Below the pieces are notes generated by a model that saw only the letters and a program-made list of their open reading frames with translations, searched no databases and was not told the DNA's origin. Shown piece after piece: positions 12,979-19,503 of a stretch of DNA of 64,000 nt. Position numbers and translations under genes: made by a program. The stretch lies in contig BAAIJX010000007.1 of the NCBI GenBank assembly GCA_054600435.1, positions 434,001 through 498,000 of the forward strand, in the 5' to 3' direction. This DNA comes from Neophaeotheca triangularis (Eukaryota). How positions within the stretch are numbered: position 1 is the stretch's first letter; every line of letters starts with the position of its first letter.

Positions 12979-14757
12979 TTATGCCGCCTTCTCCTCCTCC
13001 GGGGTAAGTGTCGGCAGCTCAACAGCGCGATAGAGCAAAATAAGCGCACTGTGGCTTTCGCCTCCGCCAGCAAGCGTCTCAATCTTCTCACTCTCCACCT
13101 CCTGGACCTTCTCATCGTTGAACCACCACCACTTGCCATCCTCGACCTTTCCATCAGTGGCAGCCTTCTTCACATACGCAGTGTAATGTCCACTGTCTGC
13201 CGATGCACCCTGATGAGTGACCACCCCACGCAGTTCGTACAAGCCAGTCTGGTTTGCGTTCTTGTCTTGGGCAAGGTCAGGAGCGACAAGCGAAAGCAAC
13301 TCTTTCTTCGAGGCGGCAATGCCAGCCCTTCTTTCCGCTTCAATCTCATCGTCTGTCTTGAATTTCTCGCCTTCGGTACCTCCCATAGTAGTGTCCTGGT
13401 CGGCTCTCGCATCAGCCTTTTCCTCCTTCAGCTCTCCCTCGCTGGCAGGCCCTTTTGCCTTGAGCTCGCGCTCCTTCTCCTTCTCCTTGCGCTTCTGCAA
13501 GGGCTCGTTAGATAAGACCTTGTCGTCGCCATTTTGCTCGGCCTCAACCCGCATCCGTTTTTGCCTCTTCTTCTGACGTTCGACGTCCTCTTGCTCCTTG
13601 CGAATTTCCCTCAAACGGTCACGAATAGGGATGAGTTTCTTCCGGAGGTCCTCGGTACAGAACTCGGTGACGTCGATTTCGTGCTGGAACGTGACCTTGC
13701 GCATAATCTTCGCTTTCTTGCCCGTATCTTTTCTCCAGAAGAACCTGAGCAGGTGAATGGGCATGTACTTGGGCAGTCTCGAGATACGTGACGTCTCCTT
13801 GTACACAGCGTTCCGGCCAAGGCTAGGAGAATTTTTCTCCAGCTCTCCGTTCAGAGCGATGCTGATTCCTTCCCGCAAGTGATTCGTGTCGACCTTGATG
13901 TTGCATGGAAGTGCCAAAAACTGACTCTTAGTGGTAGTAGGTTCTTCCTCGGGGGCTTCTTCGCTCTTTGTAGTAACCTCGAACTGTCCACCCATGAAGT
14001 CGTCCACCCAGCCCTTCTTGTCACTGTCCGTTGCATCTTGCATCTTGAGCCTTTGCTGCAGCGTCTGCATGATCGACGTCCACACCTCTTCGGCATCTTG
14101 TTGGGCGTATCCATGTCCGCTCTTCGCCTTTTCCGCAAATTGGGGGAATTGTTGGCGAAGGGTAGTGAGAAACATGATCGGGGGGAAGCCTTCTTGAGTC
14201 TGGCCCATTTGGTCGTAGAGATCGCGGAGAGCAGTCGCAAGATCGTTGCCGCCGCCCAAGCCGCCTAGTCCGAACTGCGCCAGCTGATCGGGAGAGAAAA
14301 GGGAAGAGTTGGAAGGGCCAGCCGCAGGAGCAGCACCGGGGTTGTAGGACTTCAGCTCCTGCTGTAGCTCGGGTATGGCACGAAGGGTCTGGAGTGTGGC
14401 GTTGGCATAGCAAGTGTTTCCGGTGTTCTGCAGGCCTGCAGGTGTAGCTCCCTCTTGCTGAGCGAGTTCCGCCTCCGTCATGTCCTCTGCAAACTTCATT
14501 CTCTCCGTTGGCATGTCAAACTTGACCTCGGCGGAAGGCTTGCCCAACAGCATGATTTGAGCGCCGGGCTTGAGGTTCAGGGACTCGATGGTGGTGTCGT
14601 CCTTGACCAGCTTCTTCGCCATGACCTTCTGGTTCTCCGGCTCGACGTTGGTCAAGCTGTATAGCTGCATTTTGAGCACTTCACCAGTAGTTTCCGGCTC
14701 CACCTCGATATCGTACACCTTTCCGGCATGCTTCACTTTGAGCGGAATTACCGCCAT
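12979..14757 (-). CDS. UBP6: Proteasome-associated ubiquitin C-terminal hydrolase (Ubp6/USP14)
   Basis: N-terminal ubiquitin-like domain (LKVKHAGK), Cys box GLQNTGNTCYANATLQ, His box THQGASADSGHY and WWWFND; intronless. Confidence 0.93.
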   Translation of the reverse strand: MAVIPLKVKHAGKVYDIEVEPETTGEVLKMQLYSLTNVEPENQKVMAKKLVKDDTTIESLNLKPGAQIMLLGKPSAEVKFDMPTERMKFAEDMTEAELAQQEGATPAGLQNTGNTCYANATLQTLRAIPELQQELKSYNPGAAPAAGPSNSSLFSPDQLAQFGLGGLGGGNDLATALRDLYDQMGQTQEGFPPIMFLTTLRQQFPQFAEKAKSGHGYAQQDAEEVWTSIMQTLQQRLKMQDATDSDKKGWVDDFMGGQFEVTTKSEEAPEEEPTTTKSQFLALPCNIKVDTNHLREGISIALNGELEKNSPSLGRNAVYKETSRISRLPKYMPIHLLRFFWRKDTGKKAKIMRKVTFQHEIDVTEFCTEDLRKKLIPIRDRLREIRKEQEDVERQKKRQKRMRVEAEQNGDDKVLSNEPLQKRKEKEKERELKAKGPASEGELKEEKADARADQDTTMGGTEGEKFKTDDEIEAERRAGIAASKKELLSLVAPDLAQDKNANQTGLYELRGVVTHQGASADSGHYTAYVKKAATDGKVEDGKWWWFNDEKVQEVESEKIETLAGGGESHSALILLYRAVELPTLTPEEEKAA

Positions 14758-15524
14758 CTTGGTCACTGCACTGCTGCTGCGAGGAAGGTTGATTAATGTA
14801 GACGCGGTAGAGATGGAAATCGGACTTGATGGACGGGTCGTCGAGATTCACGTGCCAGTGGCAACTTGAAGCTTCGTTGGTATGCGGTCGGTATGCGAGC
14901 TATCTGTAGAAGGTCATGGATGAACAACAACAGAAAGGCGCCATCAATAGATGATCAGATAAGGGGAAATTCCGGGGATCTGCCGACCAACAGCACCGCC
15001 CACCACGCCCACGAATGATGCATGGATGCTACCAGTAGTAGTAGTACTTTTATGAAGTGCATTTTGTGATCAGTATACATACATACTGTACCTAGATATA
15101 GTAAATTACACATGTATAATTGGTTTAGTTGAGTACTTGTCAGTCTCTCATCGACCCTAGACCCTAGAGAGCTAGCTAATTGAAACAGTCTATTATCCGT
15201 TACCTTAGTTGTGAAAGTAGGTCGCAACCTACCTTTCCCTTAGATGATGTCAACTTCACTTTCTATATCAAGGTTAGATATCGGAGAATCACCTACTCCA
15301 GACTGCCAGGTGCTATCAGACAATTATTACTACTATTACTATTTTGATTGTCCCTTCTCGATTGTTCCATCTTCTAGAAGCAGAAAAAAAAGCTACGCCG
15401 TGGTAGGCCCGCACGCCCGTCAGCCAAAGGCCCAAACTCAAGTCGCCCAAGGCAAGTCGCTTTGTCCACAGTACTACTGTGTCCATGTCGATGCTATCGT
15501 GGTTAGTAATGAATTAAGAACTGT

Positions 15525-15582
15525 ATTGGTATTGGTCTTGGTTTTGGTTTTGGTTTTGGTTTTGGTTTTGATCTTGATCTGG
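15525..15582. repeat. (GGTTTT)n hexamer microsatellite with degenerate flanks
   Basis: attggtattggtcttggttttggttttggttttggttttggttttgatcttgatctg. Confidence 0.85.
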
Positions 15583-16251
15583 TGACAAAAAAGACCTGGC
15601 AGGCATTGAAAAGCACGGGGCCCAGACGCATCTTCAGAGCGCCCCACTCTGCATAGCTAAAGGCGAAGCTTGAAGTAAAAGAAGAAGCGTAGGTTGGCGT
15701 AACGTTCACGGTACCTAGGTAGGCAGCCCAGAGTCGCAGACTGCATGCCGAGCTATCACCCACCACTATAACTTAACTAACTAGCTGCTAAGGTACTTCT
15801 TATATACACGACTACTCACCTGATCCACCCGCCCAGTCCGACTCGGCCTTGCTTGCCCACCATTTCCTCTTTCAACCTGGACAACACCACTCGACACCAC
15901 CGCTCCCAATCCCTCCCGACCCTTCCCTCACGCAGCTCCTCTTATCTACAAGACCGCAACGACCGCGAGCTCCCATTCCTCAAGGAGTTACGAGGAAGCC
16001 AGTCTTTCTTCTCGCTGCAACTTCCATCTCCATTCAAACTTGGATCTCTCCTCGCCCTCCTCGTCCTCTTTTGCGGCGTCTTGACCTTTCAAATCTTCTC
16101 CAAAAGCTACCTCTTCCATTCCTATCCCTCTCCTCCACCGCCGGCGTCTTGCCCCACCCCGACCTACAACCCTTTTCTCGAGAACCTCTACTGCCACGCC
16201 AACACCCAGCATCACGACCCGGGTAGTCTTTACAACACCAGTCCGCGCAGC

Positions 16252-17823
16252 ATGGCCCTCGCAGCAGCAGCACAGCGCGTAGCCGCCGAGTTCGAGTACA
16301 CGTCCGGCAATGTACAGACCGGTGTGAAGGAGTTTATCAGGCAGATGGACGAGGGACTGGAGACAGCGGGCACGACAATGAGCCAGATTCCTACATATGT
16401 GGCGGCCGTGCCCAACGGAACAGAAAAGGGTCTCTACATGGCCGTCGATCTTGGCGGAACAAACTTCCGCGTCTGCTCGATTGAACTGCACGGAAACAGC
16501 ACTTTCAGCCTGACGCAGAGCAAGGTCGCTATACCCAAGGAGCTCATGGTGGCCAAGACGAGCTCCGATCTCTTCAGCTTCCTCGCCAAGCAGATCGAGT
16601 CCTTCCTCAAAGAGCACCATGGCGACCACTACCACTCGCATATCCGCAGGCGCGCAAACCCCGGCGAAAAGAGCGGGTTCCAGGAAGAGGAAATATTCAG
16701 TTTGGGCTTTACATTCTCGTTCCCTGTTCAGCAGGTTGGCATCAACAAGGGTTTCCTCATGCGCTGGACAAAGGGCTTCGACATTCACGACACGGTCGGG
16801 CAAGACGTTTGCGCGCTGCTACAGAAGGAGATTGATATCCTCGGCCTACCTGTCCGCGTTGCAGCGCTCGTCAACGACACGGTCGGTACCCTAATGGCGA
16901 GGTCATACACTTCTCCCGGCAAGACTGGAACGCTCTTGGGAGCCATTTTCGGCACAGGTACGAACGGGGCTTACGTTGAGAAGCTCGACAAGATCACCAA
17001 GTTGGACGCAATGAAGAAGGAGGGCGCGGCAGAGGTCGACGATTCTACCGGCGAAATGATCGTAAACACTGAATGGGGCAGCTTCGACAACCACTTGTCT
17101 GTCCTCCCCAACACGCCTTACGACAGCTCCCTCGACAAGGAGTCCGTCAACCCGGGCGTCCAAATGTTCGAAAAGCGCGTGTCCGGCATGTTCTTGGGTG
17201 AGATCCTGCGCCGAGCTCTCCTCTCCCTCGTCAAGGATCCGAAAGTGCCTCTTTTCAGCGATGAGAACAGCAGCCAAAACGACGCCCACAGCACGACAAA
17301 CATTTCCCCCGACTCCGGACTCTACAAGCAATGGGGTTTTGACACATCCCTGCTCTCAATCACCGCCGGCGACAACTCGGCAGGCCTGAAAGTCACGCGC
17401 CAGACCCTGGACAAAGACTACGGCATCACAGCCGCCAGCGCCGAAGACGCCGAAGCCGTGCGCCTCATCGCTTTGGCCATTGGTAAGCGGGCCGCCAGAC
17501 TGTCAGCCGTGGCCATGGCGGCGGTTGTGCTCGCGACCGACAAGCTCAAGCAGCCCACCGAAATTGCCACCGACAACAACGCTAAGCTCGAAATCAACGA
17601 AGACGACATTGTCGATATCGGTGTCGACGGCAGTCTAGTGGAATTCTACCCAGATTTCGAAATGTACATCCGTGAAGCTTTCAGGGAGCTGCCGCAGATT
17701 GGCGCCGTTGGCGAAAAGAAGATTAGAATTGGCATTGCCAAGGATGGAAGCGGTGTTGGTGCTGCTTTGATCGCCCTGGTTGCTGATAGGGCTTTGAAGG
17801 GTAGGCTCCCTCCTTTCCCTTAA
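16252..17823 (+). CDS. GLK1: Glucokinase (hexokinase family); possible CUG-initiated longer isoform from 15877
   Basis: AVDLGGTNFRV, LGFTFSFP, WTKGF, VNDTVGTL, IFGTGTNGAY, NTEWGSFD and DGSGVGAALIA; first ATG at 16252 (MALAAAAQRVAAEF). Confidence 0.92.
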   Translation: MALAAAAQRVAAEFEYTSGNVQTGVKEFIRQMDEGLETAGTTMSQIPTYVAAVPNGTEKGLYMAVDLGGTNFRVCSIELHGNSTFSLTQSKVAIPKELMVAKTSSDLFSFLAKQIESFLKEHHGDHYHSHIRRRANPGEKSGFQEEEIFSLGFTFSFPVQQVGINKGFLMRWTKGFDIHDTVGQDVCALLQKEIDILGLPVRVAALVNDTVGTLMARSYTSPGKTGTLLGAIFGTGTNGAYVEKLDKITKLDAMKKEGAAEVDDSTGEMIVNTEWGSFDNHLSVLPNTPYDSSLDKESVNPGVQMFEKRVSGMFLGEILRRALLSLVKDPKVPLFSDENSSQNDAHSTTNISPDSGLYKQWGFDTSLLSITAGDNSAGLKVTRQTLDKDYGITAASAEDAEAVRLIALAIGKRAARLSAVAMAAVVLATDKLKQPTEIATDNNAKLEINEDDIVDIGVDGSLVEFYPDFEMYIREAFRELPQIGAVGEKKIRIGIAKDGSGVGAALIALVADRALKGRLPPFP

Positions 17824-18441
17824 TCTTGTCATTTGGGTTACTGACTCCGATTATCAGGTCTCCCCGATGCTCCGGCGCGCAAGGGGGGAGTTATGGGTAT
17901 GCTGCAGCAGGTCGTGGACAACGTCAACCGCAGCGTCCGGACGAGAGTGTAAGATGGACGCACGGACTTTGTAGCTAAGATCCTCTGCTCGGGTTGGGTC
18001 GTTCGCGTTGGGGGGTGTAATGATTTTGGCCATGTCTTTCCACTGTGTACGGGTTTTGCGCAGGCGTTTCGTCTGGTATGTACACACGAAAGCCGCTGGT
18101 ATAGTGCCATTCTGTATTGACCCTCATAGACTTTTGAGGCTGTTTTGCTGTGGTCGGTTGGCGTGATCTGGGCGCTCGATCGAGTCTTAAAGCACTGCTT
18201 CGTCGGTCTTTGACGTACTGCGTTCGCCGAACCCCCTGGCATTGAGGCAGAGTAGCTTGTGTGCGATCGAAGAGTTCAGCCATGAGGTCTCATGCCTCTC
18301 GAAGCTAGCTTCCAGCGTAGTTCTCTGTCTTAGCGATGATCGCAAGCAAGTCGCAAGTCGCCCAAGCCTTTCTCCAACCCATACGTTCCGTTGTTGCAAA
18401 GCGACATCCCATCCCATCACCCCATCATCAATGGAACCCCC

Positions 18442-19257
18442 TCACCCCGCACCCCCAAGCAAATCCCTCACCCCCACAACCCTCCTAACAACCACCGCGC
18501 CCTGCGGCCTCAATTTCCGATAGTACCCCTCCTCTCTCCGCACCTCCGCAAACCCACGCTTCGCATACCACTCCAGCCCCTCCTCATTCGCTTCCCACAC
18601 GTGCGCCCCGACGCTGCTGACACCGTGCTCCCTCACCGCTCTCGCGGTCACTATGGACAGCAAGTGCGTCGCGATGCCGTGGCGTCGGTAGGGGGATAAG
18701 AGCACCAGGGTGGAGAGGTAGAGCATTCTCTCTTCCTTTTCCTTGGCAGTGGCAGTGGTGGTGGCGTTTGGTTGTTGTTGGAGGTGGGAGGGCAGGATGC
18801 GGCAGCGGATTGCGCCTATCAGGCGGCCTTTTTGGGTTTCTTTTTCTGTTGGTTGGGAGGGGGGGCTGTCGTGCCAGAAGGCTAGTAAAGTTATGTTGGC
18901 GGTCAGAGCGTCGGTGACGGTTTCACGGTAGAAGGTTTCGGGGTAGGGGATTGGGAGGAGTAGGCTGTTGAGGCGTTTGAAGAGGGGTACGTCTGCGGTG
19001 GTGCAGGGGCGGAGTTGGACATTTGGGGGGAGCTCGGGGAGCAGACGGAAGAAGGCGGCGGGGGTGGTTTGTGAGATTGTTGGGTTGGATTCGTTGTTGG
19101 CGGGCTCATCATTGCTGCTGTCGTCGGGTGGGGGTGTTGGTAGGGTGGTGGGATTGGGTGTTTTACTGTCGTCGATGAGAGGTTCTACTCGTTGTGGTAG
19201 TGGATCTGTGACGGCGGAGGGTTTCTTGAACCATGTCATTAAGCTTGACTGTGGCAT
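18442..19257 (-). CDS. GNAT N-acetyltransferase, NAA50/Nat5-like
   Basis: FKRLNSLLLPIPYPETFY, LYLSTLVLLSPYRRHGIATHLL, AHVWEANEEGLEWYAKRGF and GYYRKL. Confidence 0.87.
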   Translation of the reverse strand: MPQSSLMTWFKKPSAVTDPLPQRVEPLIDDSKTPNPTTLPTPPPDDSSNDEPANNESNPTISQTTPAAFFRLLPELPPNVQLRPCTTADVPLFKRLNSLLLPIPYPETFYRETVTDALTANITLLAFWHDSPPSQPTEKETQKGRLIGAIRCRILPSHLQQQPNATTTATAKEKEERMLYLSTLVLLSPYRRHGIATHLLSIVTARAVREHGVSSVGAHVWEANEEGLEWYAKRGFAEVRREEGYYRKLRPQGAVVVRRVVGVRDLLGGAG

Positions 19258-19503
19258 ATTGGCGTACGGTCATCCCTGGATGTTTGTACTCTATCGACTT
19301 CTCTACCTAAATAGTTAAAACTATTTGGCTCGTCTGGGCAGTCGCGTCGACGCGAGCTCGAGCGACTTCCGCTTAGGTACTTGAAAGTTGCCTCGGGAAA
19401 ACTCCGGAAGATTTTCTAAAGCTTGCAACTCGGGCAGAGGGACGGACCTCACCTTTGCTATGCCTCTGTCGATGTTACTGCTAGAGACCTAACAGACAAC
19501 GCA

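Follow-up and report, generated by a model that had tools for sequence, protein, structure and literature searches.

At which codon, or codons, is the glucokinase of Neophaeotheca triangularis (Dothideomycetes, Neophaeothecales) begun? The question arises from a forward-strand gene in a 64,000-nucleotide (nt) stretch of contig BAAIJX010000007.1 (positions 434,001 to 498,000), hereafter called the window and numbered from its first letter, in which the glucokinase reading frame is open from 15781 and meets its first ATG at 16252. Comparison with related loci suggests that a single mRNA is read from two start codons, a CUG at 15877..15879 and the AUG at 16252..16254, and would thus yield two glucokinase proteoforms, one extended at its N-terminus by a segment with a predicted membrane helix and one soluble. 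We place the probability of this whole explanation, which is drawn from sequence comparison, at roughly 0.65.

The glucokinase frame and its leader

A first-pass annotation made from the letters of the window had pointed to a kinase frame without stops far 5' of its first ATG, to a stretch without ATG at 15748-16251, to an in-frame CTG at 15877 in a strong context and to a 125-codon extension containing a hydrophobic helix. These observations were all reproduced. The count of ATG in the three forward frames of 15748-16251 is zero, the CTG is flanked as TTCAAC CTG G (A at -3, G at +4), and the interval from this codon to the ATG at 16252 (context CGCAGC ATG G) amounts to 125 codons (15877..16251); the long form would comprise 672 amino acids (aa) and the short form 547 aa. 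The predicted transmembrane helix, LGSLLALLVLFCGVLTFQIF, is encoded at 16039..16098 (residues 55-74 of the long form) and is followed by Pro-rich sequence. Two further claims stood in part. A TATATA element reported near 15801 is indeed present, at 15801-15806, and is conserved in none of 12 relatives; as it is found in the window only, it was discarded as promoter evidence. The extension had also been called hidden, which is not fully the case, since the public gene model P0001, weighed below, already includes it, although it gets to an ATG by way of an implausible exon further 5'.

Taken alone, the window rises only weakly above chance. Its leader is rich in C and poor in G (C 208, T 122, A 106 and G 68 of 504), with a GC skew of -0.4 to -0.57, and its base composition predicts about 3.5 ATG per 504 nt, the probability of finding none being about 0.03. 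Its openness proves little, since the other two forward frames are also open over long distances, at 15792-16226 (144 codons) and 15824-16084 (86 codons). The decisive support for the extension comes from the comparison with relatives and not from the window by itself.

The identity of the enzyme was established from the part of the frame that follows the ATG. The kinase domain, which occupies the remainder of exon 1 (16252..17799), matched the Pfam families PF00349 (249.5 bits, 3.3e-74, cut-off 24.3) and PF03727 (257 bits, 2.1e-76, cut-off 24), and hexokinases and glucokinases of the PDB were matched at about 1e-100, among them yeast Glucokinase-1 (6p4x, E 2.7e-100, query 4-511 against chain residues 15-500). 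The segments DLGGTNFRV, GFTFSFP and VNDTVGT, which we take to be the nucleotide- and sugar-binding segments, align with human HK2, and the catalytic domain looks intact.

Conservation of the N-terminal extension

A search with the translated long frame returned long-form homologues that cover 95-100% of the query, the extension included, at about 70% identity. Their genera include Zasmidium, Zymoseptoria, Cercospora, Meristemomyces, Hortaea, Oleoguttula and Myriangium, all Dothideomycetes, and the arrangement is common to Neophaeothecales and several Mycosphaerellales-like lineages. Homologues from Pleosporales and Mytilinidiales have an extension that has diverged further, in which this helix stands equally far from the kinase Met. 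Searches with the extension alone recovered 4 proteins with a word-based method and 5 with an exhaustive search of representatives; they are too insensitive for taxonomic range, which was drawn from the other homologue searches. The extension matched no Pfam family and gave no usable match in the ESM Atlas.

Alignment of 14 extensions (A1) revealed three conserved segments besides the helix, which is hydrophobic and rich in Leu, and the Met of the canonical enzyme. The first is an R-S-x-S-x-P motif, R-S-Q-S-L-P in the window (15901..15918), in which R9 and S12 are invariant and S10 and P14 are conserved in at least 90% of the sequences. The second is an acidic/hydrophobic ELPFLxEL motif (ELPFLKELRG, 15967..15996), with F34 and L38 invariant and L32, P33 and L35 again conserved in at least 90%. 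The third is a Cys/Pro linker, C-P-x-P..N-P-F..L-Y-C (16150..16194), where C92, P93, N98, F100, L104, Y105 and C106 are invariant; across the class, one linker Cys is kept in at least 85% of 57 long forms.

DNA sequences were available for 16 loci (L001-L016), collected by a pattern scan of metagenome contigs, and close pairs among them reveal where protein coding begins. Between L001 and L005, substitutions at the first, second and third codon positions number 4/2/34 in 378 nt of the extension and 2/0/18 in 303 nt of the kinase, against 33/38/46 in the 274 nt upstream. The pair L006/L008 shows the same pattern, with 3/3/33 in the extension versus 19/22/21 upstream. Insertions and deletions (indels) also differ on the two sides of the CTG. 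Those of L001/L005 measure 2, 4, 10 and 14 nt upstream and multiples of 3 in the extension, and in close pairs generally the extension indels are of 3, 6, 9, 15, 24 or 27 nt, whereas those 5' of the CTG are of 1, 2, 4, 5, 8, 10 or 14 nt. A few gaps of odd length coincide with the boundary itself (positions 0 to +5) and were read as alignment edge effects.

Ratios of nonsynonymous to synonymous divergence (dN/dS), calculated by the Nei-Gojobori method for unsaturated pairs, were 0.06-0.15 for the extension against 0.03-0.10 for the kinase; in distant pairs that involve the window they were higher, 0.23-0.53, with dS near saturation. Between lineages dS reaches 1-2.3, that is, synonymous sites are saturated. 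The first-pass annotation had proposed dN/dS on the extension in related loci as a check and had held that frameshifts in the leaders of relatives would speak against the claim; the low ratios in close pairs and the extension indels, all multiples of three, came out in its favour. The comparisons show an extension that is coding sequence under purifying selection, with a coding signal that starts at the CUG.

The CUG as probable start codon

At the position aligned with 15877, L001-L009 and L011-L015 all read CTG, always with A at -3 and G at +4. The preceding codon, which supplies this A, is ATC, ACC, AAA or AAG in the loci and AAC in the window. L010 has ACG CTG GCT 22 codons before its motif, further upstream. 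A-N-N CTG G is kept in 15/15 loci whose sequence reaches the site (L016 ends short of it), plus the window. In a DNA alignment of 12 sequences the 5'-most columns without variation are A(-3), C, T, G and G(+4), none being conserved further 5'. The C-A-N-N-CTG-G-C pattern resembles the context that fungi prefer around AUG, in which Ivanov et al. (2017, PMC5487733) name A at -3 and G at +4 as the most important positions. The 100 nt before the CTG (-100..-1) are 62-84% pyrimidine. In the window, the ATG-free pyrimidine-rich stretch at 15748..15876 is presumably 5' leader or core promoter, and the relatives show no coding signature there.

In a maximum-likelihood (ML) tree of 45 kinase domains the loci are spread over at least six lineages, with the window branching outside all of them. 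L010 is placed as the sister of Zymoseptoria, L012 clusters with Friedmanniomyces and both L013 and L014 with Hortaea, and L009 is identical to the public protein P0004. Since just about 16% of the Leu codons of the extension are CTG (37/230) and synonymous divergence is saturated across these six or more lineages, a CTG conserved at this one position is unlikely to be due to chance. Among the 14 loci with an upstream in-frame stop, 11 (L003-L008 and L010-L014) have no in-frame ATG before the kinase Met.

Annotated long forms read [K/T/I]-L-[A/D] at the CTG site, and Met is residue 1 at this site in P0006, in Cercospora berteroae P0013 and in Ascochyta P0089. AUG begins the same extension in some relatives, Pleosporales among them. 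The tree joins the CTG-bearing L011 to P0006, which has ATG at the site, on a fork with weak support (80/82) and with L011 filling 26% of the kept columns. From the conservation of codon and context, and from the coincidence of both with the onset of the coding signal, the CUG at 15877 is very probably a start codon.

Two proposed isoforms by leaky scanning

The ATG count covered the window together with 12 loci, leaving aside L010, the duplicates L002 and L004, and L016, which is truncated before the site. From the CTG to the kinase ATG, 13/13 sequences are free of ATG in every frame. Codon shuffling, in which Met codons are already excluded, predicts 0.4-1.5 ATG per sequence and 12.2 in sum, base composition predicts 1.6-3.2 per sequence, and kinase sequence of equal length contains 6-8. 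At the protein level, Met accounts for 2 of 6317 residues in the 110 positions before the kinase Met of 59 long-form proteins, versus 553 of 25789 in their kinase domains.

The downstream start has its own signature. The Ser codon before the kinase ATG is AGY (AGC or AGT) in 15/15 sequences, compared with 22/186 for the other Ser codons of the extension, and an AGC or AGT codon puts A at -3 of the kinase AUG. The +4 position is G in the window and in 8 loci (L009-L015 and L016), and T in L001, L003 and L005-L008. The kinase Met itself (M171) does not vary among 69 sequences; it lines up with the start of yeast Glucokinase-1 and is where many relatives are annotated to begin. Two shifts were also observed at this residue: Ser is encoded by AGY at 12% in the extension and at 59% in the kinase, and the GC skew changes from about -0.5 to about 0. 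The extension looks as if it had been shaped by a second role, as an unstructured, ATG-free leader.

An ATG-free extension, avoidance of Met and an invariant A at -3 are what leaky scanning requires, without being proof of it, and the first-pass proposal of two isoforms made by leaky scanning fits all three. We propose that some scanning ribosomes would initiate at the near-cognate CUG, in its strong context, and produce the 672-aa form, consisting of a basic Ser-rich N-terminus, the R-S-x-S-x-P and ELPFLxEL motifs, one transmembrane helix and the Cys/Pro linker ahead of the kinase. Other ribosomes would pass the CUG, travel over 372 nt that are free of AUG in every frame and begin at the AUG at 16252, which also has a strong context, giving the 547-aa soluble enzyme. 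The long form would then be an integral-membrane glucokinase kept at a low, regulated level, and the soluble enzyme the bulk product. That the two isoforms arise in this manner is, in our estimate, about as probable as the explanation as a whole.

Alternative explanations

The alternative that survives best holds that the CUG form is essentially the sole product, Met 16252 being an ordinary internal residue and no soluble isoform arising by leaky scanning. This Met begins a conserved helix, SMALAAAAxRVAAEFEY, in which it might be retained for structure, and those relatives that carry AUG at the upstream site might initiate there efficiently. Near-cognate codons, on the other hand, are inefficient (PMC7049704, on leaky initiation), and an exclusive long form sits poorly with the absence of ATG from three frames in all 13 sequences, with the avoidance of Met in the extension and with an invariant A at -3 contributed by a kind of Ser codon that is otherwise rare there. 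Glucokinases outside the group, moreover, start at the kinase Met. We regard a sole long product as unlikely.

Two isoforms might instead come from two mRNAs, the short one being made from a second transcription start site (TSS) inside or just upstream of the extension. Alternative TSSs do yield some dual-localised fungal proteins, such as ProRS (PMC7049704). An internal TSS, however, needs no removal of ATG from all frames over 372 nt in every lineage, and we consider this route improbable.

As to the upstream start itself, other near-cognate codons lie in frame 5' of 15877, namely ATT 15862, TTG 15853, CTG 15820 and ACG 15808, and the ATT has A at -3. None of the four is conserved, whereas both conservation and the coding signature begin at the CTG, and their contexts are weaker, the ATT lacking G at +4 and the others having T or C at -3; initiation at one of them is very improbable.

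The public model would dispense with a non-AUG start altogether. P0001 (717 aa), a public protein identical at 100%, is annotated from an ATG at 14829, with a 17-codon first exon (14829..14879, encoding MDGSSRFTCQWQLEAS..) joined across a 914-nt intron (14880-15793) to an extension that would thus be AUG-initiated. A donor GTATGC is present at 14880, and the AG at 15792-15793 is preceded by a CTAAC-like sequence. Against this, the intron is 914 nt long when the confirmed intron of the gene measures 57 nt, the exon lies in the 5' region of a divergent minus-strand UCH gene, 70-120 nt from the ATG of that gene (~14757-14759), and the first-exon peptide is found in no relative. Both indel phase and substitutions mark the DNA 5' of the CTG as non-coding in relatives, and in 8/13 sequences the nearest AG is at least 31 nt 5' of the CTG; with no near acceptor and with non-coding sequence in between, a spliced upstream exon is not the explanation. 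The four marine metatranscriptome runs with near-identical contigs contain none over 14600-15900, and the lack of the 14879/15794 joint in them is therefore uninformative. The models of relatives are often fused to neighbouring genes (1757, 1468, 1350 and 954 aa), which is how predictors behave when a coding-like region lacks an ATG; other models are truncated at the kinase Met or begin at in-frame ATGs 20 to ~70 codons upstream, a variety that we read as predictors hunting for an ATG. The upstream exon of P0001 looks like a prediction artefact outside the gene, and the chance that the model is right is very slim.

Finally, the idea that 15781-16251 is just a 5' untranslated region, open by chance through its C-rich, G-poor composition, with only the 547-aa enzyme being made, can point to three long-open forward frames, to a leader-like composition and skew and to the many relatives annotated from the kinase Met, but it is hardly credible in view of the low dN/dS, the third-position substitutions, the in-frame indels, the protein motifs kept across lineages with saturated synonymous sites and the hydrophobic helix at a fixed distance in 59 homologues.

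Several observations weigh against the explanation by two start codons. The sole RNA over the extension is one low-depth contig of run X3, from a near-identical strain and covering 15901-16159 (259 nt, 3 differences), which stops short of the CUG and may represent DNA carried into the library. Nor can the loci be counted as independent, as L001-L008 form one clade in the ML tree, and L001/L002 and L003/L004 are identical in translations and codons over the region examined. An in-frame ATG lies 46 codons 5' of the CTG in L001/L002 and 89 codons 5' of it in L009, both in sequence that is not conserved as coding, and Zasmidium, Zymoseptoria and Meristemomyces are modelled from upstream in-frame ATGs. 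No conserved hairpin was detected 3' of the CUG (z -1.0 to +1.5, 9 sequences). The conserved internal Met could be kept for structure alone. As regards the long form, Lys plus Arg residues flanking the helix average 2.9 on the N side versus 1.6 on the C side; by the positive-inside rule this favours an orientation with the N-terminus in the cytosol (N-in), and hence a catalytic domain on the non-cytosolic side, which is awkward for a glycolytic enzyme.

The predicted membrane helix and its possible topology

The hydropathy of the helix, on the Kyte-Doolittle scale over 19 residues, is 2.29 in the window and averages 2.42 in 59 long forms, in which it always lies 45-67 residues before the kinase Met; a conserved Pro follows it. 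On these grounds the hydrophobic segment probably inserts in a membrane. Two of the differences in the X3 contig, at 16075 and 16083, fall within the helix and change Gly67 to Ser and Leu69 to Phe, a low-depth strain variation.

The first 25 residues contain 2-5 Lys plus Arg, 0-2 Asp plus Glu and 5-9 Ser plus Thr, and this basic, hydroxylated and acid-poor composition resembles a presequence. We take it as a compositional hint, which is not diagnostic and was not counted as evidence. The R-S-x-S-x-P motif has what we understand to be the form of a 14-3-3 mode-1 site or a basophilic-kinase site.

A doubtful arrangement would be a type II (N-in) long isoform, with the R-S-x-S-x-P tail turned toward the cytosol or the mitochondrial matrix and the whole catalytic domain in a non-cytosolic compartment, either the mitochondrial intermembrane space or the lumen of the endoplasmic reticulum or Golgi. 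The intermembrane space might be reached by means of the presequence-like N-terminus, with the helix acting as a stop-transfer segment. We know of no fungal hexokinase that acts in such a compartment. If this topology were true, Dothideomycetes would phosphorylate glucose in a non-cytosolic compartment, in an amount set by the stringency of start-codon selection. A sensing or organelle-facing role of the long form is speculation.

Relation to known systems

The nearest precedent in start-codon usage is cpc-1 of Pezizomycotina, whose conserved near-cognate starts have this A-3/G+4 context (Ivanov et al. 2017, PMC5487733). The two cases share an in-frame extension 5' of the annotated AUG, purifying selection, a conserved near-cognate codon in the A-3/G+4 context and automatic annotations that include the extension without resolving its start. 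They differ in that cpc-1 encodes a transcription factor, is subject to control by upstream open reading frames (uORFs), uses several near-cognate codons and has a dN/dS of 0.35, whereas the glucokinase is a metabolic enzyme with a single CUG, the lower ratios given above for close pairs (0.06-0.15), a transmembrane helix and an ATG-free extension.

A sugar-metabolism enzyme with a non-AUG start is also on record, since fungal 6-phosphogluconate dehydrogenase has a non-AUG peroxisomal isoform (Kremp et al. 2020, PMC7214817). There too, a presumed 5' untranslated region holds cryptic targeting information, translation starts at a non-AUG codon and the enzyme is dual-localised. Its signal is a short type 2 peroxisomal targeting signal (PTS2), its start is AGG AUU and the evidence, from Ustilago, is experimental; the glucokinase extension has 125 residues, a membrane helix and a CUG, and its evidence is comparative alone.

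Membrane association of hexokinases is familiar outside fungi. Mammalian HK1 and HK2 bind the outer mitochondrial membrane, and plant hexokinases carry their anchors at the extreme N-terminus. Like the anchored plant enzymes, the long form would be a hexokinase-family protein tethered by an N-terminal hydrophobic segment, with the difference that its helix comes after a conserved segment of 54 residues and not at the extreme N-terminus as in plant types B and D. These two plant types are membrane-anchored, and one moss gene also gives an anchor-less cytosolic variant (Nilsson et al. 2011, PMC3045890). In that account the anchor-less form is made by splicing, whereas here we propose that it is made by start-codon choice. 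A diatom glucokinase with a C-terminal helix was considered as a parallel and rejected as not comparable, being grouped with bacterial-like glucokinases in the paper that describes it (PMC2173943).

Fungal proteins that are dual-localised through leaky scanning have been described (Wallace et al. 2020, PMC7049704; Monteuuis et al. 2019, PMC6582344). These accounts give the same design as here, a weak or near-cognate first start, a strong in-frame AUG downstream and targeting information between them. The cases described there mostly gain a mitochondrial presequence, while the glucokinase would gain a signal-anchor-like helix. Our literature search, with most subscription journals outside its coverage, turned up no account of a fungal glucokinase that is anchored in a membrane or started at a non-AUG codon. 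The kind of arrangement is already known; the glucokinase case is unusual in the cleanness of its comparative signature and in its cargo, a signal-anchor-like helix in place of a presequence alone.

Gene layout and neighbourhood

Exon 1 ends at 17799 and is followed by a GT..AG intron of 57 nt (17800..17856), whose joint 17799/17857 is present in contigs of the RNA runs X1, X2 and X4. The last exon (17857..17952) encodes a conserved C-terminal tail ending ..GGVMGMLQQVVDNVNRSVRTRV, followed by the stop codon. The pattern of this tail, ..GG.xG[FM]...NR.xR.RV, occurs in Mycosphaerellales-type homologues and is absent from Pleosporales, and the tail may form an amphipathic helix.

Upstream of the ATG-free stretch, the nearest ATG, at 15745, opens a uORF (15745-15771; ATG CCG AGC TAT CAC CCA CCA CTA TAA) of 8 codons with its TAA stop at 15769, in the same frame as the glucokinase and 132 nt 5' of the CTG. 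A (TTGGTT)n microsatellite of 7.5 copies is found at 15526-15576, between the divergent genes. On the minus strand, the neighbour at 12979-14757 encodes a ubiquitin-domain plus UCH hydrolase, presumably of UBP6-like architecture, and that at 18442-19269 a GNAT acetyltransferase. An Rfam search of 15300-16400 gave no match. A promoter and terminator scan found nothing, its bacterial models being irrelevant to a fungal host.

Implications

The glucokinase adds a deeply conserved and clean case to the few fungal non-AUG proteoforms, and it concerns the first enzyme of glycolysis. It implies that one fungal class may keep some of its glucokinase tethered to a membrane, by a device unlike those of the membrane-bound hexokinases of plants and mammals. 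It would also explain a systematic mis-annotation of this gene in genera that include Zymoseptoria, Cercospora, Pseudocercospora and Hortaea. The interchange of CTG and ATG at one site in close relatives would moreover offer a natural experiment on start-codon turnover.

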